From Schmidtea polychroa (taxonomy: Eukaryota): a stretch of DNA of 64,000 nucleotides. Below are positions 1,337 through 58,987 of this stretch, piece by piece. The translations under genes and the position numbers were made by a program. Location: assembly GCA_044892525.1 (NCBI GenBank), contig CM097887.1:21452001-21516000 (forward strand), in the 5' to 3' direction. A model generated the notes under the pieces. The model was not told where the DNA came from. It saw only the letters and a program-made list of their open reading frames with translations, and made no database searches. Each line of letters starts with the position of its first letter. Positions within the stretch are counted from its first letter, which is position 1.

Positions 1337-4300
1337 CTAAATATAAATTAGCATCATCTTAATGTCAATTAGAACTTAATTTACCTATTTATTAAGTATT
1401 ATTTTTTGAGTGAGAAAATACATAAATTAAATTTTCTGATTTAATAATTTTCCAAGGATTGTTGAGTTGATTTAAAAATCATGAGACTTGTTGACCCCCA
1501 CTCAAATTATCCTTAACCCTAATCGNNNNNNNNNNNNNNNNNNNNNNNNNNNNNNNNNNNNNNNNNNNNNNNNNNNNNNNNNNNNNNNNNNNNNNNNNNN
1601 NNNNNNNNNNNNNNNNNNNNNNNNNNNNNNNNNNNNNNNNNNNNNNNNNNNNNNNNNNNNNNNNNNNNNNNNNNNNNNNNNNNNNNNNNNNNNNNNNNNN
1701 NNNAAAATCACATATAGCGTCGATTTCGTCCTTCGCAGAGAGTTCAATCTTTACTTGTAAGATTTTGGTGTCAGCTGGGAACCGTAGGAACGCTAAATAA
1801 AGTGAAAGATACTATTTTTACCGAAAATCGTCATTTTGAATACATCGTGTTATATTAGATGAGTCGATCAGAAATTAAGAAAATTCATAATTTTACTAAA
1901 AAAACTGGAATGTGGCATACCCGCATTTTTATATTAGAAACCAAATAATAAATGGTCCAAATTCCGGTAATAACTTTTAGCGTTAAACTATCCAAATAGA
2001 CCATTAAGGAGAACAGATAACTACATAAATGCTAACAATGGAGTTGTGTAATTTTTACGAATGATTATTCAATTCAGTAGAATTATATATTAATATTTTC
2101 TGTAGCAAATTAAAAAGAAATTGAAAATATAAATATGAATTTTTTAGATCGTCGCGGAAAGATAAAAGGAAGATGTTTTGTTAGAAAAAGAAAATAGTAT
2201 TACCAACATATACTTAAAATAAATTGACTGATTAAGATTCTTTTATTATTTCCCATATACATACCAAATTATTATCAGTAACTCCAAAAACAAAAAGCTC
2301 AACTGAACACATATCGACTGTATTAATCACTGGAATTTTGCTATCAATTTCGTCATTATCACATTCTGGTCATTGAAGCTTTTTAAAACGACTTTTGGAA
2401 TTAAAATTAATAACAAGTGACAAGTATAAAAAATTTTGATTTTGACAAGACTCTTTATTTCAATCATGATATTCAAAAACTCGATTACATGGAAGCATTT
2501 CCATTAGCAACAAGTTAAACAGCAATAAACAGCAATCAAACCATCTAGATATTTGTAATTCACTTTTATATTTCAAAGTTTTGGTGGGTTACTGGTACTG
2601 AAAAATCTTTACCTCCTCATGCTGTTTCCAGCGTAACCCAGGATACAATTTATAGCTGACCACTTGATACCCGTTGAGTAATCAACGTTGGTACTGTATC
2701 AAGGGTTGGGTACTAGCAAGAAGTGAGCATGCTTAGCATACTATAATTGTCTAGTACCCACTGGGGCTCACGGACTGCCGATAGAAGGCCTATGTCCGGT
2801 TTCTTTAGTCCCTATTCCGAAAATCAACATTATGACAAATTCGAAATGCCCAGATATGAATACACCCGTAATATTTATTCACAACACAAAATCAAAACTC
2901 ATAGGGTTATAGTCGGTTCTTTCGGTGCAGACTCTGACGAAGTAGCATTGAGCGTCACTTGGGCCTGACAGGCTTGGCGGATTCTCGCCCGCGCCGCTTT
3001 ACCCGGCCGGATCTTCTTCTTCGAGATCTTCGACGCTGCGCATTCCTTTCGTTGGTGGAGCAGCTCACTCATAGGGCGGATCCTGGAGATGGCCTCTCGA
3101 TCAAGGTTTTGTTGGTACGACTGGATCTCCAGCTCTCTCACTCTCAGGCGGAGGGCATGCAACTCAACATGATCTTGGGCGCTCTGGAGTTGCAATTGGG
3201 TGATGAGTTTCATCCGCTTCTTCATCTCTGTGGGCGGGAACCAGGTGCTCTCGAAATTTCGGCAATGGGCCTTAAGTCGCATTAACTTGGCCCGGCATTC
3301 TTCTACTTGTTGTTGCGCCCGCTCTCTATCTGCCCGCATTTCTTCCAGGAGTTTTAACACTGAAACAGACAACATTAGGAATCTTTACCTCAGCATTGAG
3401 TGACGCAAGTTAGTATGGTTAAATGAATTTCGCCCCTTCGTCACTACTCCCTTCTGCGCACATCTAGGCCTATTCTTTGGATTTCACCAAAGCTTATAGG
3501 GTGGTCGTAATGGCCAACGCTACGGAAAATTATAGTTGGTGGTAACAATGGCCCCCGTTACAGGAAAATCATTGAAATCAAAACGATGCACACAATGGAA
3601 TTAGTATTGATAATTAACACATACATAAATAATTGAACTAAGAAAATTATCATCAATAATAACACTGGTTAATGAAGATGATCAAAACGAAACAATATCA
3701 ATAATGAAATTAGTAGAGATGACCAGAACAAAACAGAGCAGTTAGATGGGCACGCACTGCCAAGAAGCACAAGGTACTATAAAAACATTCATCATATTAC
3801 AGGATTTGCACTGTGTATTAACAACAAAATCATTTCGGTTATATAATGTTTAATTATAAGTCTCCATCTTTGTCCGCCCGAATCTCCTTGGTGGAACTGG
3901 TGCCTTTTCGTGGTCGTCCTCGCCTTCTTTGCCGATTCGGTCCACGGCGAGGGCTTCTTGGATATTCCAGCCCACGTTGGAGAGCCGCAGTTCGTCTTGG
4001 GTGACATTGGGCTCGTGCGTACCCGTCACAGTCTTCCAACTCGCCGGCCAGGGTTGCTTCCTCGAGTCGGTGTAATCGGTCCACCGCCGCCTTTACCTCA
4101 TCAAAGGCGTCGATCAGGGCTAATGACGTGCCATTGATGTAAGGCTCTATCCTCGGTTTCACGGGGACCACATTCTGGTAGGTCCAATCGTGGATTTTAT
4201 ACCAGATCCACCTGGACCTCAGGCGAGTGAGTGCTTCCTCCTGGTCCAGTCTGGCGACTTCGTCTGCCTCCGCGTGGTTTAGGCTGAGTCTGGATGTAGA

Positions 4301-7300
4301 TGTCAAGGGATTCGCGTGACTGTCTTCTGGTCTAATATTAGGCATGCCTGTGAGATTAAGAGAACATATTAGTAGAATTCTATTCGCTCGTCTACGCCCG
4401 GTTACCCCAAGACGTTTGATACACTATTACATTTAAGTTCAAGCGTGACCCGTATTGCAATGATCTTTTAGGTGAAAAATGAACTTAATTAATTTCCCCT
4501 TCTGATTTCGATGTAATTTAAGTGGGCTAGAGAATTATGAAATTCAAGGTTTGTAAGTATCAGTTACAAAATTGCAGTTCGTATGTTTAAAGTGAAAATC
4601 CATAAGCTGTTTTTGACGAACTAATGGTTGATACAGTAAAAATGAGCGTTTAAAATTTTATAAACTAAATTTTCAATAGCGGTTGTTTAAATCATTTAAA
4701 GATTTAATTTAACTGTTTATAGCAATTTATGTTAATTTAAATATTAATTTTCCTTTAATAATTTTTAGAATTCCCTGTTAATAATTTTTGCAAAAATTTA
4801 TTCTACTAGGACCAACTATGGGAAGTGGATGTCGCACATTGTCTGAATTTACATTCAGCTCTTGCGAATCCCTGACCATAGTGGTTGTAAGTAGTTCCCT
4901 CATCAACTGATACTTAACGGGTAAATTAGCTTTTTAAATTTTTGAAGTTTGTATAATTTCAGGAATAAGTCTCCAAACTCTTCACTTTGAAGGTGACAAC
5001 TTAGATCATGGATTCGAGATGCCACTGTTTGATGGAAGTTCAAAATATGCCAGCGCTCTAACTTTGTGAGGATTTAGCTGGATAATATCATTTAGTTAGA
5101 TTTTTGATCTATGCCTTGGAGTTCTAAGTCCACCAATTTCACCCGAAGACGTCCAGCGATTTATCATTTGCTTTCGAGGATTTACCCTGATGGGAGTATT
5201 CAGTTATATAATTCTCGCAAAGCGAGCATTCAAAGGGACTTGTATGCATTGATTTATTTATGCCGTTTTCTGTTTTTTGAAGAGTATTTTGGTCAATAAA
5301 TCTAGCTCGATTTTTGAATCTTTGATTTCTTTACACAATCCTACTCGGATATTCAGTTTTTTTAGAGTAGCTTCGGCATGATTTTGTTTTTGCTGGGGTA
5401 GGTAAATGAACTAGAGTGTTCCTTCGTGCGATGATCCGAGGGACAATTCCATGAGGTTATTATTAATATAGGTATACACACGTACACTCACAAATGCACA
5501 TACGTAGTTATAACTACGTCAATTTACAAATTTAAGTTACTGATCCTGACGTCATTTACTGGGGGGTGTTACTAAAAATAGATCTCAGTAATTTTCCGGG
5601 ATTTTTATTGGAGGTACATAAATTTACAAATTTAAGTTACTGATCCTGACGTCATTTACTGGGGGGTGTTACAAAAAATATATCTCAGTAATTTTCAGGG
5701 ATTTTTATTGGAGGGTAGGGTCATTGTAACTAATAGGGGGATCCCAAAAATCAATAAAATTTTGGTTAAAGTTTTATTTAAGAAAATAATCCTTCCGATA
5801 ACGTAAACATAATGGTAATAATGACCAAGGTGAAAATTAATGTCGACAATACTAACAGTAGAAATAAATGATAACAATAATAATTTNNNNNNNNNNNNNN
5901 NNNNNNNNNNNNNNNNNNNNNNNNNNNNNNNNNNNNNNNNNNNNNNNNNNNNNNNNNNNNNNNNNNNNNNNNNNNNNNNNNNNNNNNNNNNNNNNNNNNN
6001 NNNNNNNNNNNNNNNNNNNNNNNNNNNNNNNNATAACGGTAAGGTAAATCATGATAATAAGTGTAAGTTTTATGCAGTGGGTAATAAATGTATAATTCGG
6101 AAGGGGGGTATTTATGAATATTTATAACTTATTAGTTTAACATTTTACAGACCAAGTATATGCTAGAATGAGTTAATTTAAGGCATTTATATAACAGGTA
6201 ATGAAGGTATGATTCAGGGGGGGGGGTGGTTATGAATATTTATAAGTTATTAGTTTACCATTTTACAGACTAAATATATATTAAATAAGTTAATTTAAGA
6301 TATTTATACAATAGATAATGAAGGTATGATTCAGGGGGGGTTGTTTATGAATATTTATAAATTAGTAGTTCAATATTCTATAAACTAAATACATAAAAAA
6401 TAAGTGAATCTAGGGTAATTAGGTAAATACATAACCTAGGGGCTAATTACGTAGATTTATCATTTTAACATTTTGTAAGTTAAATATATATCAAAATAAA
6501 TTAGGATATTTAAGTACTGGACGATAAGTATATAATTCAGAGGATCATCTTATGAAAATTTATAAACTATCATTTTTACATTTTATAAGTTAAACATATA
6601 TATCAAAATAAGTTAGGATATTTATGCATGAAAATTTACAACCTATCATTTTAATATTTTATAAGATAAATATATACATCAGAATAAGTTAGGATATTTA
6701 TGAATGAAAATTTACAAACTATCATTTTAATATTTTATAAGATAAATATATACATCAGAATAAGTTAGGATATTTATGAATGAAAATTTACAAACTATCA
6801 TTTTAATATTTTATAAGATAAATATATACATCAGAATAAGTTAGGATATTTATGAATGAAAATTTACAAACTATCATTTTAATATTTTATAAGATAAATA
6901 TATACATCAGAATAAGTTAGGATATTTATGAATGAAAATTTACGAACTATCATTTTAATATTTTATAAGATAACTATATACATCAGAATAAGTTAGGATA
7001 TTTATGAATTGGACAATAAATATATAATTCAAAGAACCATTTATGAAACTAGGTAAGTTGTACATATTCCAGTTGGGTTATAACCATGAACTGGTGATTC
7101 GACGACTTTACGGCATTGGTCAGAAAGATTGCCTTTTCTTTAAATTCAATATGCTGATATATGCAATTTCATACTGATGGTAATGACACACTCTCTATGA
7201 AGATAACGAGAAAAGGGTGGTGAGGATAATGATAATAATCTTGGAGGTGATATTACTATTAAGGCCAAATAGAATTTTTAAAGATTTCAATACCCATAAG

Positions 7301-10300
7301 GTAAGGATAAAGACTTGTAATTAATACATCATTGAACGTGATTAGATTATCTTTAAAATCGAACATAATTATGAATAATATCAATAAAATCTAATAACAA
7401 TAGTTAATATTGAGCATATTGAATAATAGTTTGTGCAATTAACCGACTACTTGATAACTTTTGTGATAATTTGAGTCTGGGATCTTTCCCGTTTAGATGT
7501 TCCTAATGATGTATTTCCTATAGAATATTTGAGTGTGTATTTTAGATATGTCGTTTACCGGAAGGTCGAATTAATTAAAATTTTCCTATTTTCCCGATTC
7601 AACTGAATACGGTACGATAGGCCTTATTGTAATATGTTTCCCACGATTACTTGCCCGCATTTTATTTCGTCCGCATAGTCCCTGCGACTATGCCAACTAC
7701 CTGGATGGATTTACCGCCCTACTCCTGGTTAGAAACCATTGGTTCGTGGCGACCTTCCGGTTAAAAAAAAAAGAATTTTAGTGCATGTGGGGTCGTAGAC
7801 CCGTATCGTGCAGATAAATAATTATTGGAAACAAGGCTGATCAGCGTCGTGGATGCAAACCGCTCACGACGACGCTGGTAACTCTTGTTGTAAATAATCG
7901 GATCATAATAAAAGGTGACAAGAATTAAAATCATTATAATATATCATAAAAATGAATAATAGTTATACAATAAATATACCATCCTTACTTTCAATATAGT
8001 TCGAAAATTCGGCAAAATTTTTGGCATACAAAAATATCACCTATTTTGTACACGTGTATGTATTGATGCATTAAAACAAACTCGAATTCTTTTTATTCCA
8101 GAAGTTTCTATTTTGTAATTTTGATATTTTTAATGGCGATTTTTGCGTCATAATTTTTATTTTTATTTTTAAAATTTTATTTCCTAAATATTTTTTGCTA
8201 ATTTTTCCTCCATGATGGATTTGGAACGGTTCCAGAACATTCCATATTACTTTTATTTCAATTTTTATTTTTAACTGATATTTTACGAATTTCTTTTTAA
8301 GATTTTTTATTTTTACTACTAATTTATTTATTTTTTCTAACTTTTATTGTTCTAAATGGCTTTTGTGATGGTCGTCGCCATTTTATGGAATGTTCTGGGT
8401 TTTTCTGGAATCTTTTTACTGTTTTTATCGTCTTTTAAGTTATTCGAGTTTGCTTTATGTAATTCTATGTTTATTTGGATATTTTGAGTTAGATTTTGCA
8501 TACCTTCTTGCTTTTGTATAATTTTATTTAATTTCTGTGTTTACATTTTTTTTGTTGTTTCTCTTCTAATTATTGTTTATTTGGTGTAGCTTTTCAATAT
8601 TTAACTATACTTTTTGCTTTTTTGCATGTTGTGTACCTACGCATTTCAGTCACAATTAGAAGTTTGGGTCTAGAAATCAGTTCTAGCCCAACAGTTTCAA
8701 TAACTGGAAATAAAGCAGCTGACAAATTTATATTTGAACATAATTGGGTTTTTAATTTATTTGCTGATATAAAAATAGGACCATCAGAATTAGAAAGAAT
8801 AGATCGTTCTGGTCAGGGCCGTCGAGAGCCAGGCCGGGCCTCCGATGCAATTTGTCTCTTTGCAATTACCGACTGATATATTTTTTAAAAAACATTAGTT
8901 TTAGTTATTCTATTTATTACTTATGAAAATCCATGATACATATAAACTTAAATTATCACAAACTTATATTTTTAAAATTATTTAATTATATTGTTGGGCT
9001 GAGTCGAAAATTTAAACGTCGAACGTCGAAAATGTAAACTTAGGAAATTTAAACTTAGAAGGTAAGACAAATAAGATACTAAAGAAAATAAAAACCAAAT
9101 AAATAACTTAAGAATAAAACGGAACAAGAAATAAGAAAAATAAGAATTAAAACAAAATAATAAAATAAGAAAATAGAAATAGGAAAATAGATCAACCAAC
9201 AAAAGGAAGGAAATTTAATAAATAATGAGGCAGTTAAGGAAATAAATAGAAAAACATAATAAAAACAAAGAAAATAAGGGAAAATAATCATAAAACAGAA
9301 AAAAATTAATTAAATAATTAAAATAAGCGGTACTCAAATCTGATTGGTCCGCATACACGCAAAAATACTATATATACAGACACAAGACCCATTACATTCA
9401 CTGTTAATTTCAAAATTACTACAGGTAAGATTAAGCGAAAAATTATGCACTGTTAATTTCAAAATTACTACAGGTAAGATTAAGCGAAAAATTATGCACT
9501 GTTAATTTCAAAATTACTACAGATATAGAGACAATCAGGACTCAAGAATCAACGAAACCTACTCAACGCATTCAACAGGAAATCATAATTCAAGGGAACA
9601 ACAGTATCGTACTCTACTAAATCAACGTTGCAGAGAGATAGCGTATAATTTTCGACTCGGCTCACAAAATTCGATTTATTAACTGCAGTAAGACGATTTT
9701 CTTCTTTAGATTTTTAAGTATTATGAGTAATTATTTAATGATTAAATTCTCAACTTAAGAAGTTTTTATTCCTTCATTTGATTTCCCAGTAATGAATTTA
9801 TTTATTTATTTCGGTTTAATTAGATATTGTGATGTAATACTCATTCATAAATAAACGATTTATTGTAGTAATTTATGCTTTATGTTTATGACTATTTTAT
9901 GAATATAAAATTTATTGAGAAACGTGGCGTTGAGATGGATGGCGTTCATGACAAGAGGTGCCTTCGGGAGCTCTATCGTTGGACGTACATCGTTTCAATC
10001 ACGCAGGGAGAATGGACCGTCAGGTGAAGGTTTCTTCACGGGTTCAATCGCTGAGGGCGACCAAAAATCTGATTTGAGTAACAGGGATTTGATCGCAAGA
10101 GTAATTTCAGACTTATAGTAGAATAGCTATGCGATACACAGTGAATGAGGTGGACACTTTATCTGTTTGTGTAAGGTTAACAGACGTTGAGTAGCTCTGG
10201 AAAAAGATTGTGAGCGTTAAAAATCGAAACCTTCAACATAACTACTGACTGTATTCTTGGTTCGAGACCGAATTTGTGCGAGAGTTAACCGCTAGTCACT

Positions 10301-13300
10301 CGGAAAATAACTACTTCGATCGATAGCACTATTATTTTCAATTAGAAATATTATCACGGTAGATATGAAGGAAAATTTCAATAACAAATTAAGACATAAT
10401 ACATTTTAGTTAAAACACGATTGTAAACTTAGCTTTCCGCCACGTGAACAGTTCCATCGTTGATTTGGATTTTTCGTAGTCATCTTTCATTTCATCCTTG
10501 AGGCATACTCGCATCTGGTACATCTACCGTAGGAAGTGTAAGAATTTCCAACAATAGGAAAAGTTAGACGAAAATCCAGTTTCAGATAGTGTTGTGTGAA
10601 CTAACAGGCCGTAGTAGCATCGCGAAATTTTCCAACGTAAATTGTGCAGATAAGCCACATTCAATTCATACTGATAAGACATATGAAGCGGGTTGATGAG
10701 AAATTACCAAATCGGTAGAATGAATCCAATTTTTTTTGTTTTTGCTTTACGTGCATGCATTGATAAGAGGCTCGTTAACAAACTCACGAATAGATAAGAG
10801 CTCATGAAAGAGATAGTTGATGAACCCGAGGAGTTTCAATTCACACGGCATTATATCCGATAAGTAGTGAGCAGAAACGAACAGCAATAAGCATGTGCAT
10901 CCGAAAATGACTCACATGTAGTAGGGCCCAGGTGGGTCATTCACAAGTATTGATTACCGAGATATGACAGTAAAGAGATAAGCCACCTGCTCTACAATTA
11001 TTCCGCTAAACATGAGACCCCTTTTAAAGTGCATTCATTAAGATTAATTTTCCTAAATTACGTAATTTAGATTATAAATGAATGTATCAGTGTGGTGTCC
11101 TGTTGATAATAACAAGAGATATTCGTAACCAAATGATAGAACCTTTTCCTAAATCGATGTAGAGTATTGTTATAGTCCAACCAAGTATAGTAAATGATAA
11201 TCACAACCTTAATCACATCGTTAAATTTGTCAGAGTTTTTCTAGCGTGAAATTTCTCCTTCCCATGAGAAGATTGAATTTAGATTTCTTAAACCCTACTC
11301 AAACTATGGATTATACTAAAAATTTAATAAGTTAATAAACTTTCCTGTATTTACAAATACCATTACAGTATGAAGGACTTCTGATGATCGTGTTAGAGGC
11401 ATATTTAGGTGATGATTGTGAAATGCCGACGGGGAGATAGTGGAAAATTTCGAGATGGACTTGAACTGATAAATGCGACCGGAGCATAGGCTTTTTACTA
11501 AGTGCGTTTCGTTCCAAATCTTAACTCAAGTAGGGAGTAAAATAGAATAATTAATCAACAAAGTTAAATCAATTAAGGGGAATAACGAATTAAACTAAAG
11601 TAAAAGTATAGAGATAGGTTCTAAACAGCCATAAGATAACTTTTTGGGGAATTACCTTGGTGCACGGAAAAGGAGAGATCCAAGGAGTAAAATTAGGTAA
11701 AGGACAGATAAACTTGTGATGATCGACTATACAGGGAGATAATTGATCTCATTAACTCATCTTGTCCTTCCTTTTGCCAGGTACTTCACGGCAAATAGAC
11801 CCTTATAGCTAACTGACGATTATACGTATCATTATCTTAATTTTCTTCGTTACAGCCAACCGACATGTTATCACAGAATAAGTCAGCAATACGACCCTGC
11901 TTCTCCTGCGCAGATAAAAACGCAGTGATAAAAGATCTACAAGCCCAGATCGGTCGATACAAGTGGAAGATCGACGAGCTGGAAGGCACATGGTTCAGCC
12001 CAGTGCAAATGAAGGAGATGCAGAAAAAGCTTCATCGCAGCGAACATTGATGGATTTGATGTGGGAAAAAATTCAAATGGATATTCATTGATGATTTTTC
12101 ATGTAAGATTTGATAGTCGCTCAAAGTTTTACTCGACATTGACAACAACAACGAAACGAACCGAGAGAAATTACAATGAATTGAAGAACTGATCAAATTT
12201 CCAGCATCATTTTCAAAAGTAAGTGTTCGAATTATTATTCCAATTGATAGACATGTTAAAATCAATAAAAAACAAATTCCGTTTTCGTTTTGTTAATCTC
12301 CTATAATTTCAATTTCATCTGAAGATTACAGTAAAATCCAAATCTAAAAGAAATGAAATCTAACATCGAAAAATAAATAACTGTAACACATCTCGTTTTT
12401 GATTGGCTGCTTTTCATGAACGTAGAAAACCAATACATGTACAAACCAATACACGCATTCAAATTCCACTTGGAATGCACACACCAATTTTCGAGTACAC
12501 ACTACTAATCCAATCGGAACAGAACACGCATGCTCACATGCCATGCCATGCCGCCGGCACACACACCAACCGACACCGCAATGTAAAATCATTAACATTC
12601 CGTTCATTCAACCATGCAACAAAAAAACACTTTGAAAGCTGCACCGGCACCACCCATTCCTCCACTCACCCTTATCATCAATACACTGCGGTAGTGCTCA
12701 AATGCGCGTCTGAACACGCCCCTGAGCTAAACCGCGCGTTGCGCATCACTGCGTTTCCTCGTTGAAACCAGTTCAGACGGGCAAAGCTTCTATGCCACCG
12801 CTGATACGAAAAACGTGTTGCCATACTCTGTCCCTTTTCAATCACAACTCCAAACTATCCAACCAAACAACGGCAATCACTTTCATCAATATTCTTGCAG
12901 TTATTTTGTTTTAATGGATGTCCAAATGAAATGACATAAATATATTTGCACTCAATACAGTAAATGAATAACAAATAATAATAAAAAAAAAAGATTGTAA
13001 TTCAAATGTAATATTCATAAAGTTGAATCTCTGAATGCATCCGTATAAATTCAGAAATTGTTTATAGTAAATCATATATCAGGCATAATTTTTAGGAAAA
13101 TAAAATATTTTATTAACAATTTATAAATTTTAATTGAAAAAAAAATTAATTAGGATTTGTGAACTGAAAAAAAAATTTCTAGGAATTTTCTAGTTAATTA
13201 AATTTTCCTTAATTTTCATTTTAATGGTATTTTATTTATTAACCTAAATTTTCCAAATTTTTATTTTTTGTAGTTAATTAGAAATTTTTTTTTCTAATCC

Positions 13301-16819: not shown

Positions 16820-16863
<44 letters not shown>

Positions 16864-49800: not shown

Positions 49801-52800
49801 AGAGGGCTGTCATCGATGCAGTTGAAGCTTCCCACAATATTGCTAAAATCTTCCGGAATTCTCCGTTAGACAATGATCTATTGGAAGAGATTCAAAAATC
49901 AGTTCAGTTGGATTCAACAAGTTAAACGATTATTCCAAGTATTCCAAGTAAAAGAAATCTAGAAGTAGTACACGTTGACTACTAATTCAACTGTGTTATA
50001 CAGTCTGTGTGATTACAAATACAAGAGAAATGCTAAATACTTCCTTAAATTTAATTATCTATTTTATAAATGTCATCATTATTTTAACAAATACGTTTAA
50101 ATAACAAATAGTATTAAATAATATATAATGAACTCATCATACAATACAATATTTTGTTCCTTCTATTTACTCACTCACTTAAGTCGCTCTATCTATATTA
50201 AATTTTGTGATTCAAAAGACAGCAAAATGAATACGAGGCTTTTATAGATTTTTAACATTAATTAAAATTGTTATAATTATTAATAGATCTTGGTTATTTC
50301 GATAATAATATCATTTTTGTTAGTTTGTTTCATTTATTGGTATTTGCATAAATTGTAACCGTAATCTCTGTCTGGAAGCTAAGTGTATTATGGGTATCCT
50401 TGAAGGGACTACAAAATTCATAAAAAAAGTTAAAATCTTTCGCGTTCCGACTACTTGATTCGACTTCGACAAAGGATTTGGCAAATAGTAATTTTAAATG
50501 AAATGCAAGATAAACAACTATATGACGATTTGATATTTTTCCCAAATGCCAGGAGAAATTTATTCTATTTTTTTCTCTAAAAAAACTAAAGATTACAATT
50601 GAAATGGAAAATAAAAACACATTCCGAGATGAGCGTAGAAGTCAGAGAAGGAGATAAGAAAATCTCAGGAGAAATCAAATTAGAAATTAGAATATTGATT
50701 ATAATTTCAGTCGAGGTAAAATATTTAATTGTGAGTTTTGGTTTGAAGGATAACTATTATCCTTGTGATTGTTAATATAATTTAAGTGAACACAAAGTAC
50801 CGATAGATACTTTCGTGTTTCCTGGGAGCCCCAAAATCAGCCCACTTACTTTATCATTCTTTCAATTGCATCGCGATCGTTGTGCTACACAGGAGCCAAC
50901 GATTTCTTGCAGGCTGAGATAAACAGCAGGGATTAATAAATTCATTGTCTTGAGTTTTTCTGTACATTAGTAAAATTGTAATTTGTAAATTATTAATAAA
51001 AGTTTTAAAAAGAAAGAAATTGGTTTTGTTTGTGAATATTTAATAAATACGCGCAACCACATTGAATATCGTATATTTATATTTTATATAGGGTTGTTAA
51101 TATCGGTTTTTCGAGCAATCCGATTATCGTTTGTATAAATCCGATTTTAAACCGATTATCGTTTGCACTTTGCATAACCAAAGCTACTTACATTATTACT
51201 ATTCACGCACGTGTATAGTATAATTAGTTTTATTCAAAGTTTATACCACACACAAGGAGAATATGAACTGACTGTTTATGTAAAAAGTTAAAGCATATAA
51301 GTAAATTTGTTTTCAATTTCTTCGGTAATTTTCCCTGTATATACTAAAGTATAAATCAAAATAAAACTTTCCGGTGCTGCGGCGGCCTTATTTTAAAATT
51401 AAACATAAACATATCGAAACCATAGATATCAAAAACAAAGATTCCAAAGTGTAAACATTTAAAAGTAAGTACTAAATTCAATTTTATTTTTAAATATCAG
51501 ACAAGTCCTGGTTCATATTCAAAAAGACCAAAGATTCTGCATGATCTGGAAGAAGCCAGTTACGAAGCTTGGTTATCAGACGTCCAGTGGCCGAAAATAA
51601 TCGTTCCGATTGCACTGAGGTTGCAGGAATGCATAAGAACTTCCGGGCAAGAATAGCTGTTTTGCGGAAAAGTTTCATATTATGTTTCCACCACTCCAGG
51701 GCTGTTTCACTTGAGTTTGTCGACCATGATGATTTGACGTAATATTCAAAGTCGGATTCCTCTGGCGCCTGTTGTGCTGCACTATCACCAAGGAGAAACA
51801 TAACTGCATCATGATTTGGTCGTGATCTTTTAGTTGGTGGGATCATGTTATCTTCATCCCGACTCGTCTTCGGCTGTTCGGGGCAATCTGGCAGCTGTCT
51901 GATGAGATGACGGACATTTTCATACGCCAGCTTTTTGAAATCGTCCGGAAATCCAGGAAGATGCTTATACATCGGATCGAGAATTGATGCAACAACGCAT
52001 TCGTTTTTTGCTGTTTCATTATTTTCTAATCCAAAACGACGTGAAATATTCTTAGCAAGATCTCTCTTAAATTCACCCATAATGTCAGAATCTTCTTCTT
52101 TAATGGTTAAATGATTTTTCACGAGTCCCCATAACATGGGAAAAACACAAGAGGCTGATGGCTGGCTTTCGGCTGACATGACGGACGTCACGATCTGCAA
52201 CGCTTTTAAAACAGGGAGCAATTCAGTCATCAGTTGCCAATAATCGTCCTTCATGCCCAACGTTTTGGCATCGTTCAATTTCACCACGTTTTTGTCGCTC
52301 AATACTGCAACTACTGGCCATCTCAGTTCTACTAGTCGTTCAAACATGTCATAGACGCTGTTCCAACGAGTCTTACAGTGCTGAATAAGTTTTAGTGGCG
52401 TTTTATCCTTGTCCATGGACAACTGTCTTTTCAGGAGCTCCCCCGTTGCCATTGGGCTATGTGAGAAATGTCCGACTAGTCGTGCTGCAGCTGATATACA
52501 TTTGGAAATTTGATGATCCGTGACAACATGGGAGCCCATTGCATTATTGATGCAAAGTTGCAATTTATGCGCCGCACAGTGAACGTCAAACCATCCATTG
52601 AGATTGCCTGCATGATTGATGTTGGATGCACCATCATGGACACATGCATCAATTTTTTCTTTTATTGACCATTCATCAGCTATACTACATAGATGGTCAG
52701 CAATGACGGCTTGTGTGTGGCGTTGAGTCATCAGAATTGTTCCAAGAACAGGCGTCATCATATTCCAGTCTGTATCAATGTAGCTTGCAGTAAAACTGAG

Positions 52801-54238
52801 ATAAGCTTCATTGGTGACACTAGTCCAGATGTCGGTAGTGATCGCAATGTCCTTGACATTTTCATGGATATATTTCGACATTTTGACCACTAAATTATTT
52901 TTCATTGCTGTTAGTCGTGCTGTCATCGTCTGACGACACGGAGGACGATATCCTGGCTCCACTATCGCCATCAATTCACGGAAGGATTTCGATTCCACGA
53001 GCGAAATTGCCAACATATTTTCGGAAATCAATCTCGCAACAGCAGCCGTAATTTTTTCCTGTTTACTACTCGGACAATTTCTTTGTGTTGTAATCAATGC
53101 AGTCAATCGTGTTTGAGTATTTGAAGATGTTGTTAATCCACCATGTTTGCTACGCAAATGTGCATGCAAACCAGTCGTAGTACCTCCACTCCTACTTATT
53201 TGCTGTGCACAGAGCTTACATTGTGCCATCGTCGCCGAAATTTTATCAAAATTGTCCCAGACGTCAGACTTATTTATACGGAAACCCATAAATTTAAACT
53301 GATTCCATTCGGATTNNNNNNNNNNNNNNNNNNNNNNNNNNNNNNNNNNNNNNNNNNNNNNNNNNNNNNNNNNNNNNNNNNNNNNNNNNNNNNNNNNNNN
53401 NNNNNNNNNNNNNNNNNNNNNNNNNNNNNNNNNNNNNNNNNNNNNNNNNNNNNNNNNNNNNNNNNNNNNNNNNNNNNNNNNNNNNNNNNNNNNNNNNNNN
53501 NNNNNNNNNNNNNNNNNNNNNNNNNNNNNNNNNNNNNNNNNNNNNNNNNNNNNNNNNNNNNNNNNNNNNNNNNNNNNNNNNNNNNNNNNNNNNNNNNNNN
53601 NNNNNNNNNNNNNNNNNNNNNNNNNNNNNNNNNNNNNNNNNNNNNNNNNNNNNNNNNNNNNNNNNNNNNNNNNNNNNNNNNNNNNNNNNNNNNNNNNNNN
53701 NNNNNNNNNNNNNNNNNNNNNNNNNNNNNNNNNNNNNNNNNNNNNNNNNNNNNNNNNNATTAAAGATATTGATAGTCATAATGATAAATAAGTGCTAAAA
53801 ATTGAGAGAAACAATAGAAAATTATGATAATCTCACTTGGTCTAGTGCTATCAAATAAATGCATTTTCGAAAAGGTCCCGATTAACTGGCCATTCGGATT
53901 AAAAACCATTGACGAATTGTAAATTTTATTCGACCTAAGTTCGGGAATAGATCCACCAACTATCCAAATGGCGCATTCTCTACAATAGTTTGTAAAATAC
54001 ATTTCACATTAAAATGTTACTTTGACACTTTAGACAGCATTTGGCAAGTTTCTCCATTGGGAATATTTTCACTTTGCTGCATAAGATCTTCACTTCCAAA
54101 TGGACAGTTGAAGTATTCGGGTAAGCAGACTAATTTAACTCCTCTTTGTGAAACTAACTTAATTTTCGATTCAACATTAGATAGATTATAAGCTTTGCGA
54201 GAAGAAACGATATTTTGAATTAAAGCTACTTTAAGCAT
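1223..54238 (-). CDS. NIT2: Omega-amidase NIT2-like nitrilase, 4-exon model: 54238-54021, 53979-53837, 25301-24944, 1336-1223 (about 277 aa; 1-nt deletion in exon 3)
   Basis: Catalytic triad motifs are distributed across exons: LPEYFN (E), FSKMHLFD (K), GICHDLRF (C). Later motifs include YPAAFNMATGPAYW, ALDNQCFV, YGHSLATDPWG and VDEVRSMIPIRKQERGDIY*. All three junctions are GT-AG with matching phases (2, 1, 0). Exons sum to 834 nt once one base is restored. Confidence 0.8.
2583..2797 (-). ncRNA. Conserved multi-hairpin structured element of unknown class (copy a)
   Basis: Four stem domains; homologous to 25783-26002 with compensatory and G-U changes that pair only on the minus strand. Confidence 0.5.
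2899..3375 (-). CDS. Unknown coiled-coil ORF, diverged member of the WFxPx(Q/E)MK family (copy 1)
   Basis: FESTWFPPTEMKK matches LEGTWFSPVQMKE in other copies; heptad-rich region followed by a basic patch. Confidence 0.55.
   Translation of the reverse strand: MLSVSVLKLLEEMRADRERAQQQVEECRAKLMRLKAHCRNFESTWFPPTEMKKRMKLITQLQLQSAQDHVELHALRLRVRELEIQSYQQNLDREAISRIRPMSELLHQRKECAASKISKKKIRPGKAARARIRQACQAQVTLNATSSESAPKEPTITL
3854..4345 (-). CDS. Unknown 163-aa ORF with an Arg-rich tail and AT-hook-like RRRGRPRK
   Basis: Open GC-rich frame; a polypyrimidine-cag acceptor lies 2 nt before the ATG; C-terminal PRSPRRGPNRQRRRGRPRK. Confidence 0.5.
   Translation of the reverse strand: MPNIRPEDSHANPLTSTSRLSLNHAEADEVARLDQEEALTRLRSRWIWYKIHDWTYQNVVPVKPRIEPYINGTSLALIDAFDEVKAAVDRLHRLEEATLAGELEDCDGYARAQCHPRRTAALQRGLEYPRSPRRGPNRQRRRGRPRKGTSSTKEIRADKDGDL
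4810..5270 (+). pseudogene. Degraded spliced ORF (ORF-A) divergent from the copy 1 ORFs
   Basis: 42-nt GT-AG intron candidate at 4921-4962; CLNLHSAL and DGSSKYASA resemble YLNLHRVL (about 36370, minus) and QSSPKYASN (about 11400, minus). Confidence 0.35.
5521..5714. repeat. Direct repeat, 2 x 100 bp, each containing TGACGTCA
   Basis: aatttacaaatttaagttactgatcctgacgtcatttactgggggg begins at 5521 and 5621. Confidence 0.95.
6590..7010. repeat. Minisatellite, 76-bp unit, about 5.5 copies
   Basis: gataa(a/c)tatatacatcag recurs at 6665, 6741, 6817, 6893 and 6969. Confidence 0.95.
8992..9666 (+). mobile_element. Solo-LTR-like or MITE-like element
   Basis: TG...CA ends with imperfect inverted termini (gctgagtcgaaaatt / aattttcgactcggc), an A-rich segment, an ATTGG box, a TATA-like motif and an internal 49-bp repeat (9399-9522). 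No TSD found. Confidence 0.45.
11865..12050 (+). pseudogene. CxxC-coiled-coil family ORF, truncated (copy 2)
   Basis: PCFSCADKNAVIKDLQ...KIDELEGTWFSPVQMKE...RSEH*; a 30-nt GT-AG intron candidate (11826-11855) lies just upstream of the ATG. Confidence 0.6.
16822..16859. repeat. (TA)n microsatellite
   Basis: Uninterrupted TA run, seen directly. Confidence 0.95.
16858..19110 (+). mobile_element. POGK/pogo-like DNA transposon, near-intact transposase (about 17401-18720) with a 5' frameshift and a premature stop; right end in gap
   Basis: N-terminal DNA-binding region (GNRAAGRQYDVDEKSVREWRK), CENP-B-like HTH (GSNNWVFKFMTRNQLSVR), DDE_1 motifs NMDEVP, IFDAMAAH and QPLDIAVNHPFK; TGA at 18475-18477 where a W codon is expected; ataacccgc-type terminal motifs. 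Confidence 0.9.
20425..21211 (+). mobile_element. Internally deleted SPIN/GTF2IRD2-like hAT element with 8-bp TSD GTGTAGTT
   Basis: TSD at 20417-20424 and 21212-21219; imperfect TIRs cagatatgtcaaact / agtttgaaacccctg; transposase fragment VDITKHLSDLNLKLQGKDQ. Confidence 0.85.
22860..22909 (+). mobile_element. Buster/Charlie-type hAT right end
   Basis: aaaagccacagatggctcgcgagccagtgtttggcgaccactg matches the recalled 3' terminus of these elements; left end not found. Confidence 0.5.
23695..24813 (+). mobile_element. Complete Merlin/IS1595-type DNA transposon; transposase 23792-24716 split by one extra A
   Basis: 39-bp perfect TIRs (ggcgacgctctagtgtatgtcgcccaaaattttaaatta); 8-bp TSD ATTTGTTA at 23687-23694 and 24814-24821; motifs VEIDET, IYSDRWPAY and HTNKMEGWW. 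Confidence 0.93.
24944..25301 (-). CDS. NIT2: Nitrilase exon 3, with a 1-nt deletion at about 25093
   Basis: tttag|TT TAT AAC GAG gives (I)YNESETSVPGSEF...GICHDLRFPE...TGPAYW. After a frameshift it reads LLGRGIALDNQCFVGLCSIARDYQANHVSYGHSLATDPWGRIISSLDDK|gtttgt (phase 0 donor). Confidence 0.88.
25783..26002 (-). ncRNA. Conserved multi-hairpin structured element (copy b), abutting a (TA)n tract
   Basis: Same four stems as 2583-2797; loop and bulge differences are confined mostly to unpaired regions. Confidence 0.5.
26563..28786 (-). mobile_element. Nested solo-LTR-like elements (inner 26762-27976 within outer 26563-28786)
   Basis: TGTTG...CAACA termini; ends shared with 59224-60066 (tgttgaggatacctaaa and ccaa(a)taacccaaca); no clean TSDs. 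Confidence 0.45.
29340..31491 (+). mobile_element. Degenerate ZMYM1-like hAT transposon (DUF4371 plus dimerisation domain); left end missing
   Basis: RGLAFRG, NGNYLG, YFSIIIDSIPDISHLDQL, RGQSYDNASNMSG and ERSFSTLKRIKNHLRS; 3' terminus ...atacggccatg. Confidence 0.88.
31126..31339. mobile_element. Tc1/pogo-type MITE nested in the hAT 3' end
   Basis: TIRs cagtaataccccg / cggggtattactg flanked by TA on both sides. Confidence 0.85.
31698..32475 (+). pseudogene. CxxC-coiled-coil family ORF (copy 3), full length but frameshifted
   Basis: PCFSCADKNA...LEGTWFTPAQMKE...LRLEHC; S/T-rich linker; RPKRKRLIRAEK; C-terminal DDQLVADLELLLQERGD. Confidence 0.65.
34706..35410 (+). mobile_element. Solo-LTR-like element
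   Basis: Starts tgttgggct like 8992; A-rich segment; ATTGG and tatataa boxes; imperfect inverted termini. Confidence 0.4.
37095..37857 (+). pseudogene. CxxC-coiled-coil family ORF (copy 4), one frameshift near 37410
   Basis: TCFLCADKNA...YECRWFSPPQMKE...LRLEHC; KKRKRPSRAKK; C-terminal DTQLQVDIDALIAEGD. Confidence 0.65.
40167..41003 (-). mobile_element. Ty3/Gypsy pol fragment (RT C-terminus plus RNase H)
   Basis: VKFLGHII, SFLGICNYYRRFIKEY, ILDTDAS..IGAVLSQ, YCITRKELL, RTDHKAI and YRKGTDHANAD. Confidence 0.92.
41004..41830 (-). pseudogene. Degraded transposon-associated ORF
   Basis: FWEKSRILTR and EFLRLQG.ARVGSMTSVDRQLAAKEKR resemble a recalled uncharacterised DNA-transposon protein family (Cc8K15.2-like); many stops. 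Confidence 0.4.
43210..43405. repeat. Imperfect tandem repeat of about 50-55 bp
   Basis: cacRYG...(g)tcagttag(t/c)a.cagtgtg recurs about 4 times. Confidence 0.7.
44060..44662 (-). pseudogene. Intronless RNF115/RNF126-like RING E3 ligase copy, disrupted
   Basis: N-terminal YYYHKCNRHV...CVTCIDGLIERI; FDNFVTRIMNQFEQSGPP; frameshift near 44270; then SICLSDYELADEVYELPCQHRYPVQCLKTWL with several RING ligands lost. Confidence 0.75.
44880..45545 (+). mobile_element. Buster/ZBED5-like hAT transposase C-terminal remnant
   Basis: HYFP, EEEEQLI, LEEFW.SVKKSYP, KILLRFSSSWLC.GFSALTEIKSKKR; cagtgtt at 44881. Confidence 0.8.
48050..48699. mobile_element. MULE-like MITE with 9-bp TSD
   Basis: Termini gggtctggttcaatttcccgaca / tgtcgggaaagtgatcgccaccc with subterminal cccga repeats; flanks atgttaaat / atattaaat. 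Confidence 0.8.
49686..49960 (+). pseudogene. ZBED4-like hAT transposase fragment
   Basis: LEKWDI...STIVKA...LGCYTHAIQRAV...IFRNSP. Confidence 0.55.
51089..53315 (-). mobile_element. Ac/ZBED1-type hAT transposon with an intact 599-aa transposase ORF (53289-51490); 5' end in gap
   Basis: BED finger (VWDNF...CKLC...TTGLHAHLRSKH), ITTDIWTS, HCAAHKLQL, CKTRWNSVY and IPATSVQSERLFS; taggg terminus at 51089. Confidence 0.93.
53837..53979 (-). CDS. NIT2: Nitrilase exon 2
   Basis: (K)ECAIWIVGGSIPELRSNKIYNSSMVFNPNGQLIGTFSKMHLFDSTRP; ends CCA A|gtgaga (phase 1 donor). Confidence 0.9.
54021..54238 (-). CDS. NIT2: Nitrilase exon 1
   Basis: MLKVALIQ...VKLVCLPEYFNCPFG...GETCQMLSKVS; ends TCA AA|gtaaca, followed by a 41-nt intron (54020-53980) ending tgtag. 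Confidence 0.9.
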
Positions 54239-57200
54239 GCTAAATTCTTCAATAAATATTAATATATATCAAAATGAAATTAGTTGGAAATATTTTTTAA
54301 TTTTAAGAATAAATGTCAATATACAAATAATATTAATAATTCTATGACCTTTAAAAATCATTCAACAAAACAGCGGATAAGTACTAAATTTCTTGTTTTA
54401 TAAAAATAAATTTAATTTTAATGTAGTATTAAAAATAGTTGAAATTATAATTTTAAAAATATGTATTATTCATATTGGAATTAATTACTAACAACAAGGG
54501 TTTATTTTATAACTTTTATTTGAAGAATGATAGCATATAGAAATAGCCCAATTAAACGAGTGTTGCAACCATAACTCAATTTATTTTCAGGCATCAATTA
54601 AACTGTAATGGCTGTATATCTTTTACTAATCTCCTTATTGAATAAATAAACCTGTATCTTTATATTTATAATTTGTTGACTTATCACATTTATAACATTT
54701 AAACTATAATATTTATAAAAAGGAGTTTTGATGTTTTTTATTTCAAAAGACGAACTCACTTCCCACAATGAATTATTAACATAATGATGCATCTTTTCGG
54801 ACCCCACAGCCAACTGCATTAAGAATTAAACAAAATGAACTAATAACCAGAAGTAATGGTTGAACTGAACTGTTCATACGGAACAGTTTTACCAATCGGT
54901 TTATCTAGAGCTTCTTGGTGACAGTGTGAACAATGAACAATATCGGTGTTGTCTACATGTGTTGTTAAAAATAAAAAAGTAAATCAACCTAGCCCACGGC
55001 GTAGCTCAAAGGTTTTGACATCACACTAAGATTTTACCGTATCCGAGTCCAGTGGGTAGTTGCGATGGACAATTTTAATAACTAATATAACAAACTCTGC
55101 GCATAACGACCACATACTGTAATCACATTTTAATACTTAGATTATAATCATCACCACATACAATGAAGACTAGAATTGTTTCAATATTACTGAAGATAGG
55201 GCAGCACATTGTGCTATAATAATCAAGAAATAAGAGCAGATCCCAGTCAAAAAGAATTAAGCCATCAATTTTAACTTCGATTTTCTGGACATATGCTCGG
55301 GAAATAAAAACGGAACCTTGCCGAATTTTTACAAAGGCATATTGTACCTTTGAAAATTCAAGGAATGAAGAGATCAAATAAGGGCAGATCCTTGACCAGT
55401 ATTTTAAATTCCGTTTTGTTGGGTATTGATGCAAAGTCGGTATCACTGTCGACTCCTTCGTGTCCTTTGAAAACAAATTAAATACCAAACACAAAATATT
55501 TATTTTTGACTAAAACAATTACACTTTTGTTACACCTTTACTGATTCCACTACATTTGATACAACCACTTTTTGTACCTTTCAAATTGAAAGTTTCAATA
55601 CTACTGCAAATCTCACGTAGGGATGAAACTTCCAATGGGAGATGTAGCTTTCTGGTTCGTTTGATTTAAATTATTCAACTGAAACTAACTTCAAGGTTTT
55701 TATTGTTACTCTGTCTAAATTTCTAGCTTTTATTCGACCAACTGGCGGCTTGTTCACTTCTGAGGTCTCTTTTTATACTTTTATGAGAGACCAATTATCT
55801 AGAAAATTGTGCTAAATTTTTTCCTTGGGACTCAAAATCAATATTTAATGATTTTTAGATAATTGAAATTTATTTATCCTTCATTAGAGCTCAACATATT
55901 TCTTCTTTTTATCTTGTTGCTCGGGTCTCATTGCGCACCGGGTTTTCTACAGCGCTCAGGTTTACCATAAGCTCGGGCTTCACATTAGCTCGGGATTTTC
56001 ATTACTGATTAATTAATTTGTTTTTCGCATTAACTTGCCCTGTGAACATCTTATTAAATTTTTATCATAATTTCTGAATTCGTCTATCAATTTGCCGTTC
56101 AGCCATACCCGATACCTCCGTTCAATATTGATTTTTGATTTTTATTAAATTTTAATTAATTTTGGATCTTTAATGATTTTACCCATTTTTGTTATGCTTT
56201 CTTTTTATATATGAATTTTTTGGTTTTCACTCTAACTCCAACAATTTTAAACTTTAAATTTAAAGGAATACGTGAATAAAATAAGGACAGATCCCGGTCC
56301 AAACATTTTAAGAGTCAATTTTAACTTTGATTCTAAAGAAATAACTGAATAAAAAAGGGGGAAATCAGTTCCATAAGGTTAAATGAGTAGTTATTTTATG
56401 AAATTATTAATTCCAAAACTTACCTGAATTAGAAGTAGTGCAGCAATGTTGGCTAAAGGTGTTTTTCTCTTAAACAGTAAATCATTGAGTATATATTGTT
56501 GATAAAATAGTTGATACTTAACAACAATTATTAATCGATTGATCGATAAATATGTAAGGAACGATGGAAATGTTTACTTTATATTATATTCTATTATCTT
56601 ACCGTATTTCATATTGTGATAGATGGTGAGGTTTGGTGTAGTATGCAGAAATTGAAATAATAATCGTGGTAGCTCAAGTTTATGCATTGACTGAGGAGAA
56701 CAGATACCTGCTAAATTTTCCAAGCCATCAATCTTAACTTTACATTTAAGGAGATGTATGAATAAAGGCAATGAATATCACCATTAAAATTTTCTAAAGG
56801 TCATTTTGACCGAAGTTGAGAAAATGGGCGGATGCAACAAGGACGATTTCCGATTCAAAATCTGGATCACATAACAATGAAGGGAAATTTTTGTTAAACT
56901 ATGAAACTAATGCGATTGAATGTCAAGTTTCCAGCTCAGATGATGTAGCAATTAACCGTTTCAAATTTTGACCGGACACCCATCCGGTGACGGACACACC
57001 AGATATCACAACCAAGATAAGCATGTGCATCCGATGACACATACTTAGGCAATATATAATTACCTGAGACTGAGGTTATTTTGAATGTCTATTAAACTAG
57101 ACAAGAAATTGCAAACTTCGAGTCAAGAACCAGGGCCCTCGTTCAGAGGAATCGAAACGACTCGCGAGGAGGACCGATGCTTAAAAGGCTAATAAAAATA

Positions 57201-57899
57201 AACATAACGACTCAATATTTGGATTCATAATAATGTTACAAAAATGAAATAATCAACTCATAATGATGTAATTGTTCTTGATAATTTGAGGTTGATAAAT
57301 AAACCCAAGAGGTAGTTTAAGACGACAGGTTATTGACTTCGAGATGAAGGAACACACATCAACTAAGCGTTTTTTTACAAAAACATTTAACTATAATTTT
57401 ATCTAACCATTAAAATAGTCTTATTATTTATTTACATTTATCACTGCAACACATAGATAGTATAAATATTATCGTGCCATTAATATTTTAATAAATTTAA
57501 TTACAGTAGACAAAATGAACAAATTTAGCGAGGATGTAGGTTGATATACGTAGGAAGCGGCGTGGCATGCATTTCGAGCAGAATCGATGGTACGGGAGTG
57601 CGTCGAATGGAAGCGATATGATTGCTTTGTAGAGAAGCATAACGAAAGTATCGAATAGACAAACTTGCGATAGTGAAAAGTTACCGCACAGGTAATCCAC
57701 CACTTATTTCAAGCGACAATAGCAATTCCTAACAATGCTCATGAATTATTATCTTTCCATTTGGTCAAAGACCAAAATTAATTTCTAATAAAAAAATTAA
57801 TCCTCCAGACTGCAAAATACCTTACAATTCTTTTTATCTCTACGATCATTATCCCTACGATTTCAAACAATTGTTAATTTTTATAGTTCTAAATAATTT

Positions 57900-58086
57900 A
57901 GAGATACTCTTAGAAGGTAACAATGATACAATTTGTACCGACTGTATTAAAAATATTTCTGCTGTGTCACTTGTCACTAAGCGTAATTTCTTCTCAGACA
58001 CAGATGTGGTTTCCAACACTTGGTCGCTCAAGCACAAATCCGTATGTTTCTTTTACTCAGAGAACTATTTCAATCACTTTGCATGA
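57900..58086 (+). pseudogene. Possible highly diverged CxxC family member (copy 5)
   Basis: ICTDCIKN..A...SNTW has spacing similar to CFSCADKN..A...EGTW; an upstream 18-mer is shared with copy 2. Confidence 0.3.
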
Positions 58087-58987
58087 AAATGGAGGTTTTC
58101 GGCAGTCTCGATTGAATAACTGAGTCGCTGTTCAGGTGAAAACCTTTTGAAGCTTAACAAACAAAATTCTAATACGTATTGCTTAATAATATTCAAATCA
58201 TGATTTGTTGTGAATGTGGTAGAATGTGATGGAAACTCCCTATAGAACCTTAAGTTCTCGCCCTGTAGGAAAAATTTACACCTTTCTGTATAAGATTAGA
58301 TTAACAGGGCCGTAACAATATATGTGGTGCGAATTGAAAACACCCTACTATAATAATTATAATGTTCATCTTGCTAACAATCTATTCATCTCCTGATATT
58401 ATAATAAGTAGTAATGCTCTTAAATTTCTGTAGCTAATCTTGTGGACTAACATTTTACAAAAAACACTTGTCGTGACAGGCTATTGAACCAGTCCAACCA
58501 GTAATGTTAAAGATAGGCTAGTTATGATGTCGTTTCTTTTCGTACATTTCATTTAATAATCATTTTTTACATTTTTTGGTAACATAAAAAAATATTACAT
58601 GCCAATTTTGCGCCCTAATTAATGCTTAAGGCAGCATTTAGGATAAACCAGATATTTTACTACAATGTCAATTGACTTGACCACAATATCCAAGTAAAAT
58701 ACTTACGATCACAGTGAGCTTTTATGATAATGATCAAGAAGGCGTTTGAGGATGACCAACATCAATATATAATGCCACGCCTCTCTTGTCGTGAAAGAAG
58801 CCCTTAAGTGAAAACCTTAAAATAGCTTGCGAAGGGTAATATAGATCAAGAAGCATCCAATAAAATCGATATTTAAAGGAAACATTAACATAAATAAAAT
58901 AATATTTGAAAAAAAATTATATTTATCAAAGTTTCATTAAAAAATCTATTGAAATAATATTACAAGAAATTGCAATATATGAATAAG

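Follow-up and report, generated by a model that had tools for sequence, protein, structure and literature searches.

We analysed a 64,000-nucleotide stretch of the Schmidtea polychroa genome (assembly GCA_044892525.1, contig CM097887.1, positions 21,452,001 to 21,516,000 of the forward strand; hereafter the window), which is 20-45% GC, dense in transposons and home to a repeated unit that carries a CxxC/coiled-coil open reading frame (CxxC ORF). An original prediction had described this unit as a bidirectional gene cassette, seen at four loci, in which the CxxC ORF and a degraded frame on the other strand, 'ORF-A', lie either side of an AT-rich spacer, and had taken it for a non-canonical mobile or virus-derived element with no recognisable mobility enzyme. 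We find instead that the unit is very probably the long terminal repeat (LTR) of Burro-type elements, giant Gypsy retrotransposons that bear an env-like gene, with one or two conserved genes inside each LTR that are predicted to be expressed by splicing. The copies in the window, with the features inside them, are as follows.

2582 to 8693, reverse strand: probable solo LTR of family 1, 6.1 kb including minisatellites, with TG...CA ends and a 4-bp target-site duplication (TSD), GTTT, at 2578-2581 and 8694-8697
2902 to 3339, reverse strand: ORF b, 146 aa, open; a distant relative of the CxxC ORF without the CxxC
3857 to 4345, reverse strand: ORF a, 163 aa, open, with a C-terminal basic stretch RRRGRPRK and CAG just before its ATG
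4803 to 4894, forward strand: conserved hairpin antisense to the LTR, at the start of 'ORF-A'
4921 to 4962, forward strand: GT...AG intron-like 42-mer kept across subfamilies; splicing unseen, one contig crossing the 42-mer
5295 to 5318, forward strand: AATAAA followed 18 nt on by a poly(A) loose end (two contigs, one run guessed to be RNA)
5521 to 7009, no strand: minisatellites with units of 100, 115 and 76 bp, inside the family-1 LTR
8992 to 12049, forward strand: family-2 LTR, 5' part only, truncated within its CxxC ORF
11865 to 12047, forward strand: CxxC ORF, first 61 codons only (249 aa in the relative L144)
12117 to 13758, reverse strand: part of a related, shorter-LTR element adjoining the family-2 copy: its LTR end, its leader and, at 13655-13676 including a spacer, its tRNA-Pro primer-binding site
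31491 to 32933, forward strand: 3' part of a further LTR, with a CxxC ORF from 31698, ending CCAACA; hAT-like sequence lies upstream
34706 to 39393, forward strand: probable solo LTR of family 3, with TG...CA ends and TSD ATAG/ATAG
37095 to 37854, forward strand: CxxC ORF with a single frameshift near 37400-37420
54726 to 57227, reverse strand: middle fragment of an old LTR, in two pieces (54726-55387 and 56241-57227)
57485 to 57700, forward strand: degenerate homolog of an ORF that belongs to the coiled-coil family and occurs in L274, where the profile match is weak (E 7e-5)

Self-comparison of the window recovered the CxxC ORF at 11865, 37095 and 31698, all on the forward strand (48-62% identity, E 1e-12 to 4e-34). 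The first two sites had been predicted, while the third is a fifth site that had not been listed. Neither the pairing with ORF-A nor the fourth locus held up: searches with three ORF-family profiles found nothing in the window near 57900, where a CxxC ORF had been proposed, the CTDC motif there is not kept in relatives, and the locus is a patchwork of old fragments. The CxxC ORF and the ends of the LTR fragment at 54726-57227 were likewise not found, nor was the 5' part of the LTR at 31491-32933. At the first locus, where both reverse-strand frames had been counted as CxxC ORFs, ORF b is indeed a distant relative (hhalign probability 84%, E 7e-6), although it has no CxxC, whereas ORF a is a separate, unrelated protein (hhalign probability 0.2%). 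The AT-rich spacers and minisatellites that had been noted do exist.

No terminal inverted repeats or TSDs had been recognised, yet a matching pair of 4-bp TSDs flanks each of 2582-8693 and 34706-39393, which begin and end in TG...CA. Five young copies have in common a stretch of about 4.05 kb with TGTTGGG at its start and CCCAACA at its end; all four with both ends have a 4-bp TSD, the fifth being without its 5' half, and the young solo copies are mutually 88-95% alike. A TSD was found at 22 of 29 family-1 loci (25 have both ends) and at 6 of 20 family-3 loci, 7 of which have a detectable 5' terminus; among 29 other family-3 loci, the ACCAACA end is in register in 27, and one runs on into a primer site. 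Roughly 1 kb of the family-3 window copy (~37943-38966) is absent from relatives and is likely an insertion. The family-2 copy begins with TGTTGGGCTGAG, as do 10 of 11 relatives, and has ATTGG at 9342, TATA at ~9369, donor-like GTAAGA at 9425 and 9474, and AATAAA at 9850. It comprises the 5' 3 kb of an LTR unit and breaks off at 12049, the point from which the related element continues in the opposite orientation with its leader and primer site; no TSD pair was found among family-2 relatives, whose 3' ends probably lie beyond the fetched range. As no primer site follows 2582-8693 or 34706-39393 and matching TSDs flank each, these two copies are likely solo LTRs left by LTR-LTR recombination.

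Full-length elements and the primer site

Five primer-site loci (J, K, M, N and O) were each followed for 30 kb. Elements K and M are one insertion present twice through duplication, with 4.2-kb LTRs that are 99.8% identical and the TSD CTAC, and element O has 4.2-kb LTRs that are 99.7% identical and the TSD ATAA; the LTRs of K, M and O each contain the CxxC ORF. A further element, P (G000:C1, about 135919326-135956190), has LTRs 98.7-99.5% identical around a 25.3-kb internal region, with the TSD TATC, and both of its LTRs are 93% identical to the 3' 3 kb of the window LTR at 2582-8693. Total lengths are 30.6 kb for K, 28.6 kb for O and 36.9 kb for P, with internal regions of 20-25 kb. Element J (L113, G000:C1, about 5728807-5744373) has the same primer site, 1.6-kb LTRs without a CxxC ORF and a 12-kb internal region for which a single long sense ORF is listed, and is possibly non-autonomous.

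The primer site is complementary to the 3' end of genomic tRNA-Pro(TGG) genes. The exact junction of the LTR end with TGATTTTTGGGGGCTC occurs 617 times genome-wide and the family-1 junction 392 times, while the reversed controls gave none. Ahead of the 3' LTR, where a polypurine tract would be expected, elements K, M, O, J and P have a conserved tract that is GC-rich and not simply a stretch of purines. Separately, tRNA-Pro(TGG) genes form a tandem array from about G000:C1 130901000 with a period of 475 bp, and the tRNA-end pattern has 2164 exact matches genome-wide.

Pfam searches of the internal regions identified Retrotrans_gag, zf-CCHC, Monjiviricetes_fusion, RVP, RVT_1, RT_RNaseH, rve, Ank, MATH/TRAF and RING domains, with pol in the order protease, reverse transcriptase, RNase H, integrase (PR-RT-RH-IN). 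The env-like fusion domain (PF24664) lies upstream of RVP and RT in one frame in K (E 4e-72), and is also present in G and P. Bcl-2 fell below the Pfam cut-off (E 0.059), and BIR, dUTPase and SUMO-like domains gave no Pfam match in these regions. Full-length copies thus carry gag, protease, reverse transcriptase, RNase H, integrase and an env-like gene in the internal region, where the prediction had recognised no mobility enzyme; their local absence is what solo LTRs would show. The shared sequence either stops sharply at the LTR termini or enters Gypsy internal regions, with no pPolB or capsid of a Polinton, Rep-Hel of a Helitron or EN-RT with poly(A) tail of a LINE attached, and the unit does extend into a known class, although not one of those three. 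The view of a dispersed, high-copy, mobile, virus-like family is borne out, as LTRs of gag-env-pol elements.

Retrotransposition and the recombination of LTRs to a solo LTR are established mechanisms. In these elements, retrotransposition is likely primed by tRNA-Pro and driven by the reverse transcriptase and integrase that each element encodes for itself, the integrase producing the 4-bp TSDs, and recombination between the two LTRs likely leaves solo LTRs behind. Family-1 LTRs L187-L205 and P show mosaic identity (95% in one segment, 40-75% in the next), which suggests frequent recombination between subfamilies. In L175 a CCCTAA telomere-type repeat is inserted into the LTR copy at ~5720-5800, and isolated family-1 LTR 3' ends lie in the window at 25781-26006 and 22262-22329 (81% identical to 2581-2801).

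Genes and a possible antisense RNA within the LTRs

First-look searches of the genome gave 5958 candidates for the CxxC ORF, 150 of which were scored, and 2019 for ORF a. Median pairwise dN/dS (the ratio of nonsynonymous to synonymous substitution rates) was 0.06 for the CxxC N-terminus (13 of 78 pairs unsaturated), 0.28 for its C-terminus (25 of 78 pairs unsaturated), 0.16 for ORF a (51 of 55 pairs) and 0.24 for ORF b (26 of 28 pairs), and every counted pair in all sets was below 1; the choice of sequences, for an open frame and in part for similarity of the protein, pulls dN downward, and the pairs are non-independent. In agreement with these values, a set selected on DNA showed third-position bias (p=1e-4 and 1e-3). 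Judged by these substitution patterns, the LTR ORFs are under purifying selection, and the LTRs hold a minimum of two selected families of orphan proteins that are unrelated to each other. An old LTR (L158/L182) has decayed ORF-b-type and CxxC-type ORFs 2.3 kb apart, which hints at gene duplication within the LTR.

Neither the CxxC ORF nor ORF a matched a Pfam family, and no relative turned up in viral contigs. For the CxxC ORF there was no homolog at E<=0.001 among 489 and 3351 candidates searched at near lengths. Its lone match in 1.84 billion representatives was a tandem-repeat, plant-like protein aligned over 7 stretches, and was rejected as a repeat/coiled-coil artefact. An Atlas search returned one weak row, at 0.84, for the CxxC ORF and a blank for ORF a. 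AlphaFold modelled the CxxC protein as helices only (pLDDT 63.5, pTM 0.33), for which Foldseek gave no match at E<=0.001 in PDB or BFVD, and ORF a at pLDDT 52. The predicted CxxC protein consists of the CxxC, a helix, a WxxP motif and a long helix with a basic patch, and ORF a ends in the RRRGRPRK stretch, which we take to be like an AT-hook or a nuclear localisation signal. By analogy with the accessory proteins of complex retroviruses, the LTR products could act in the nucleus to regulate how the element is transcribed or how its RNA is exported, a proposal to which we give somewhat less than an even chance.

In 45 of 49 CxxC ORFs and in all 42 copies of ORF a, a pyrimidine-AG, as in a splice acceptor, stands no more than 14 nt from the ATG. 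In CxxC-type LTRs the spacing of ATTGG, TATA and donor is kept in 5/5, with a donor-like site 52-56 nt after the TATA, and AATAAA stands at ~850-900 in 4/5. We consider it fairly probable that these LTRs have a U3 of ~0.5 kb with CCAAT and TATA, that the poly(A) signal at ~850-900 closes R, and that the ORF lies in a 3-kb U5 and is reached by splicing. Splicing would join the donor that follows the TATA by 52-56 nt to the acceptor ahead of the ATG, and would thereby skip the poly(A) site at the end of R. Just behind the predicted R end, at LTR positions ~1190-1320 in K and C and at 35926-36025 in the window, there is a strong sense-strand hairpin (z about -4 to -6 in a rough shuffle), possibly a packaging or export signal.

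The ORF-A frames had been paired across loci on shared motifs. tblastx among the four zones gave no cross-locus match at E<0.05. The best 7-residue words (5/7) were matched by 95-99 of 100 shuffles and the one pair at 6/7 by 13 of 100, and the motifs at the first locus lie in two different frames. There was no codon-position bias in family 1 (118/122/146, p=0.18; 27 sequences after five short or redundant rows were dropped) or in family 2 (54/43/39, p=0.26; 12 sequences), and the family-3 scan was weak, with 8 partly chimeric sequences. ORF-A is therefore non-coding. A trace of the proposed bidirectionality nonetheless survives in another form, as a conserved antisense RNA hairpin, not a protein, at the first locus. 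The block at 4801-4985 is present in 34 of 49 loci, and in an alignment of 20 diverse ones a 34-pair hairpin on the LTR-antisense strand has 96.7% of its cells paired. The 23 cells with double changes were reached by none of 500 shuffles; the 8 pairs with double changes, three of which are contributed by a single clade, were matched by 70 of 500 and fall short of significance. When both strands were folded, the antisense strand was the more stable in four of four copies. That the family-1 zone is a structured antisense RNA thus seems to us about evenly balanced, and the poly(A) loose end at 5318 gives a weak hint that this RNA is polyadenylated. On the other strand, a poly(T) end at 3599, corresponding to minus-strand poly(A), was seen in one contig of the same run. 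Rfam returned nothing usable by E-value in 2500-14000 and nothing in the window at gathering score. Visual inspection of the hairpin as a possible hammerhead, hepatitis delta virus (HDV) or selenocysteine insertion sequence (SECIS) structure led us to set all three readings aside.

Alternative readings

Several observations weigh against the reading of the unit as a Burro-type LTR with spliced genes. Families 2 and 3 have no full-length element of their own among those seen, the primer site being found behind one 80% relative (L106), and one of the five primer-site loci, N, has no second LTR in range. Among the four pairs picked by distance, three (F, H and I) are not LTR pairs, and the fourth, G, has a Gypsy internal region but lies inside a larger duplication. 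ORF b has a pyrimidine-AG within 14 nt of its ATG in just 2 of 39 copies, with an acceptor-like site 22 nt upstream, and a sense AATAAA is missing at 850-900 from the window copy of family 3. Neither the family-1 LTR nor the short LTR of J showed the promoter-donor pattern, and the family-1 ORFs may therefore use another promoter. No splice joints were seen over 2583-5500 in contigs from runs guessed to be RNA, although contigs cannot show absence. The selection of sequences for dN/dS tells in the same direction, as does the basis of the proposed protein function, which is composition and analogy only.

If the unit were instead a non-canonical element that moved autonomously, with two genes in opposite directions and no known mobility enzyme, the fact that most examined copies stand alone between TSDs would be accounted for, as would the want of homologs for the LTR ORFs in the databases searched. 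We give this reading almost no credence and regard it as refuted by the full-length copies, since these same units stand as near-identical direct repeats on either side of gag-env-pol regions with a primer site, the genome has ~1000 exact junctions of LTR and primer site, and ORF-A is not a conserved ORF. It is very unlikely that Burro-type LTR units also move singly, mobilised in trans, beyond what LTR-LTR recombination yields. Solo copies do dominate (the primer site follows 1 of 29 family-3 relatives and 1 of 29 family-1 loci), and the young ones are closely alike, but they have neither the primer site nor the 3' tract, both of which reverse transcription needs by the established mechanism, and one LTR between TSDs is the expected product of recombination.

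Two further alternatives concern what the LTR encodes. The ORFs might lie in U3 under a bidirectional internal promoter in the AT-rich spacer, with no splicing from an R-region donor, for which mouse mammary tumour virus (MMTV) sag and the internal promoter of foamy viruses offer analogies. The family-1 LTR, with no ATTGG-TATA-donor pattern, would fit this arrangement, as would the poly(A) loose ends on both strands around the spacer (5318 forward, two contigs; 3599 reverse, one contig) and the conserved antisense hairpin that begins beside it. CxxC-type LTRs, however, share a canonical promoter-donor arrangement 2.3 kb upstream, their acceptor-like sites abut the ATG, and the hints from RNA trace to a single run whose type is uncertain, which leaves an internal promoter possible but on balance doubtful. 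There is also a slim chance that ORF-A descends from an ancient protein gene on the antisense strand, which the master elements themselves already carried in decayed form: the GT...AG intron-like stretch is kept at the first locus and the zones have a coding-like GC content. Against this, a 1-nt indel separates subfamilies inside the block, stops are shared in all frames, codon bias is missing, and the conservation fits base pairing. We therefore retain the Burro-type LTR with spliced genes.

If that reading is correct, the solo LTRs may be self-contained cassettes, each with a promoter, donor, acceptor and orphan regulatory gene in a 3-kb U5, and in one family a structured antisense RNA opposite, and their thousands may form an expressed, dispersed family. 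We put this forward tentatively and think it the less probable outcome. Were it true, every solo LTR would be a potential transcription unit supplying a retroelement regulator in trans, and might act on host cells.

Neighbouring features and known systems

Two exons of a carbon-nitrogen hydrolase (nitrilase-like) lie on the reverse strand ~28 kb apart, at 53763-54268 (profile positions 1-121) and 25069-25350 (122-190), and are likely a single host gene with a transposon-filled intron. The predicted intronic setting is upheld to this extent: two copies of the unit likely lie in the intron between these exons. The window also contains pogo/Tc5-type DDE transposases at 17437-18477 (forward) and 168-782 (reverse), one largely open; hAT-type transposases at 29276-31078 (forward) and 51490-53313 (reverse), the latter with a BED finger and dimerisation domains within one long frame; and an ISXO2-like transposase at 23695-24813 bounded by 45-bp inverted repeats. 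At 40167-41003 (reverse) there is an ordinary Gypsy RT/RNase H fragment, just 39-44% identical to the pol of the giant elements, and a 1.2-kb unit at 26762-27976, TGTTGGG...CCCCAACA, is probably an LTR from another Gypsy family. A RING-finger gene fragment at 43947-44671 (reverse) has similar pieces at loci G and I and is perhaps a repeat-borne gene fragment.

With the cassette recognised as an LTR from a type of giant retrotransposon that is already known, a false 'new element class' disappears. The LTR proteins become candidate regulators of an env-bearing Gypsy element that resembles complex retroviruses, and the thousands of LTR-borne ORFs are a warning for gene annotators. Solo-LTR formation is usually assumed to silence coding capacity, while here it would leave intact genes.

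MMTV sag, nef/rev of human immunodeficiency virus and HBZ of human T-cell leukaemia virus are accessory genes that are LTR-encoded or spliced, the LTR genes being in U3. The genes described here differ in their predicted position in a 3-kb U5, and no sequence or fold relationship to those of complex retroviruses was found. Ordinary solo LTRs of LTR retrotransposons and endogenous retroviruses are, like the copies here, single LTRs with TG...CA ends and a short TSD that far outnumber full copies, but the present units are 4-6 kb long and keep whole open genes under past selection. In foamy viruses the poly(A) signal of the LTR lies downstream of the major splice donor, which is itself in the LTR (PMC3694450); the layout predicted here likewise places a donor before the poly(A) signal, with accessory genes reached by splicing.

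The closest likeness is to Burro/GYPSM1, the planarian giant Gypsy elements, as the sections of PMC6431247 on their anatomy present them, and the assignment follows that described anatomy, not a sequence comparison with the named Burro1-4/GYPSM1. Common to both are a total length of ~29-37 kb, a CCHC gag, an env-like fusion gene between gag and pol, the PR-RT-RH-IN order, accessory ORFs with ankyrin, MATH/TRAF and RING domains, and thousands of candidate copies. BIR and dUTPase went undetected here by Pfam and Bcl-2 was below the cut-off, whereas the published calls were partly made with HHpred, and the description in those sections mentions no genes inside the LTRs (PMC6431247). Other sources, again in the parts that concern these elements, describe Burro as abundant giant repeats (PMC11410931) and report that BURRO1 transcripts rise on smedwi-2 knock-down (PMC8532177). 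A literature search of titles and abstracts gave nothing on genes inside Burro LTRs, although Repbase or the 2018 genome paper with its supplements, both outside that search, may already note them. The Ogre elements of plants likewise combine LTRs of great length (1.9-6.5 kb) with additional ORFs of no known function, but these ORFs are internal, and no env-in-polyprotein arrangement is described for Ogre in the passages of PMC6431247 that compare it. The elements sampled by this window thus represent a known element class whose LTR gene content is apparently undescribed.

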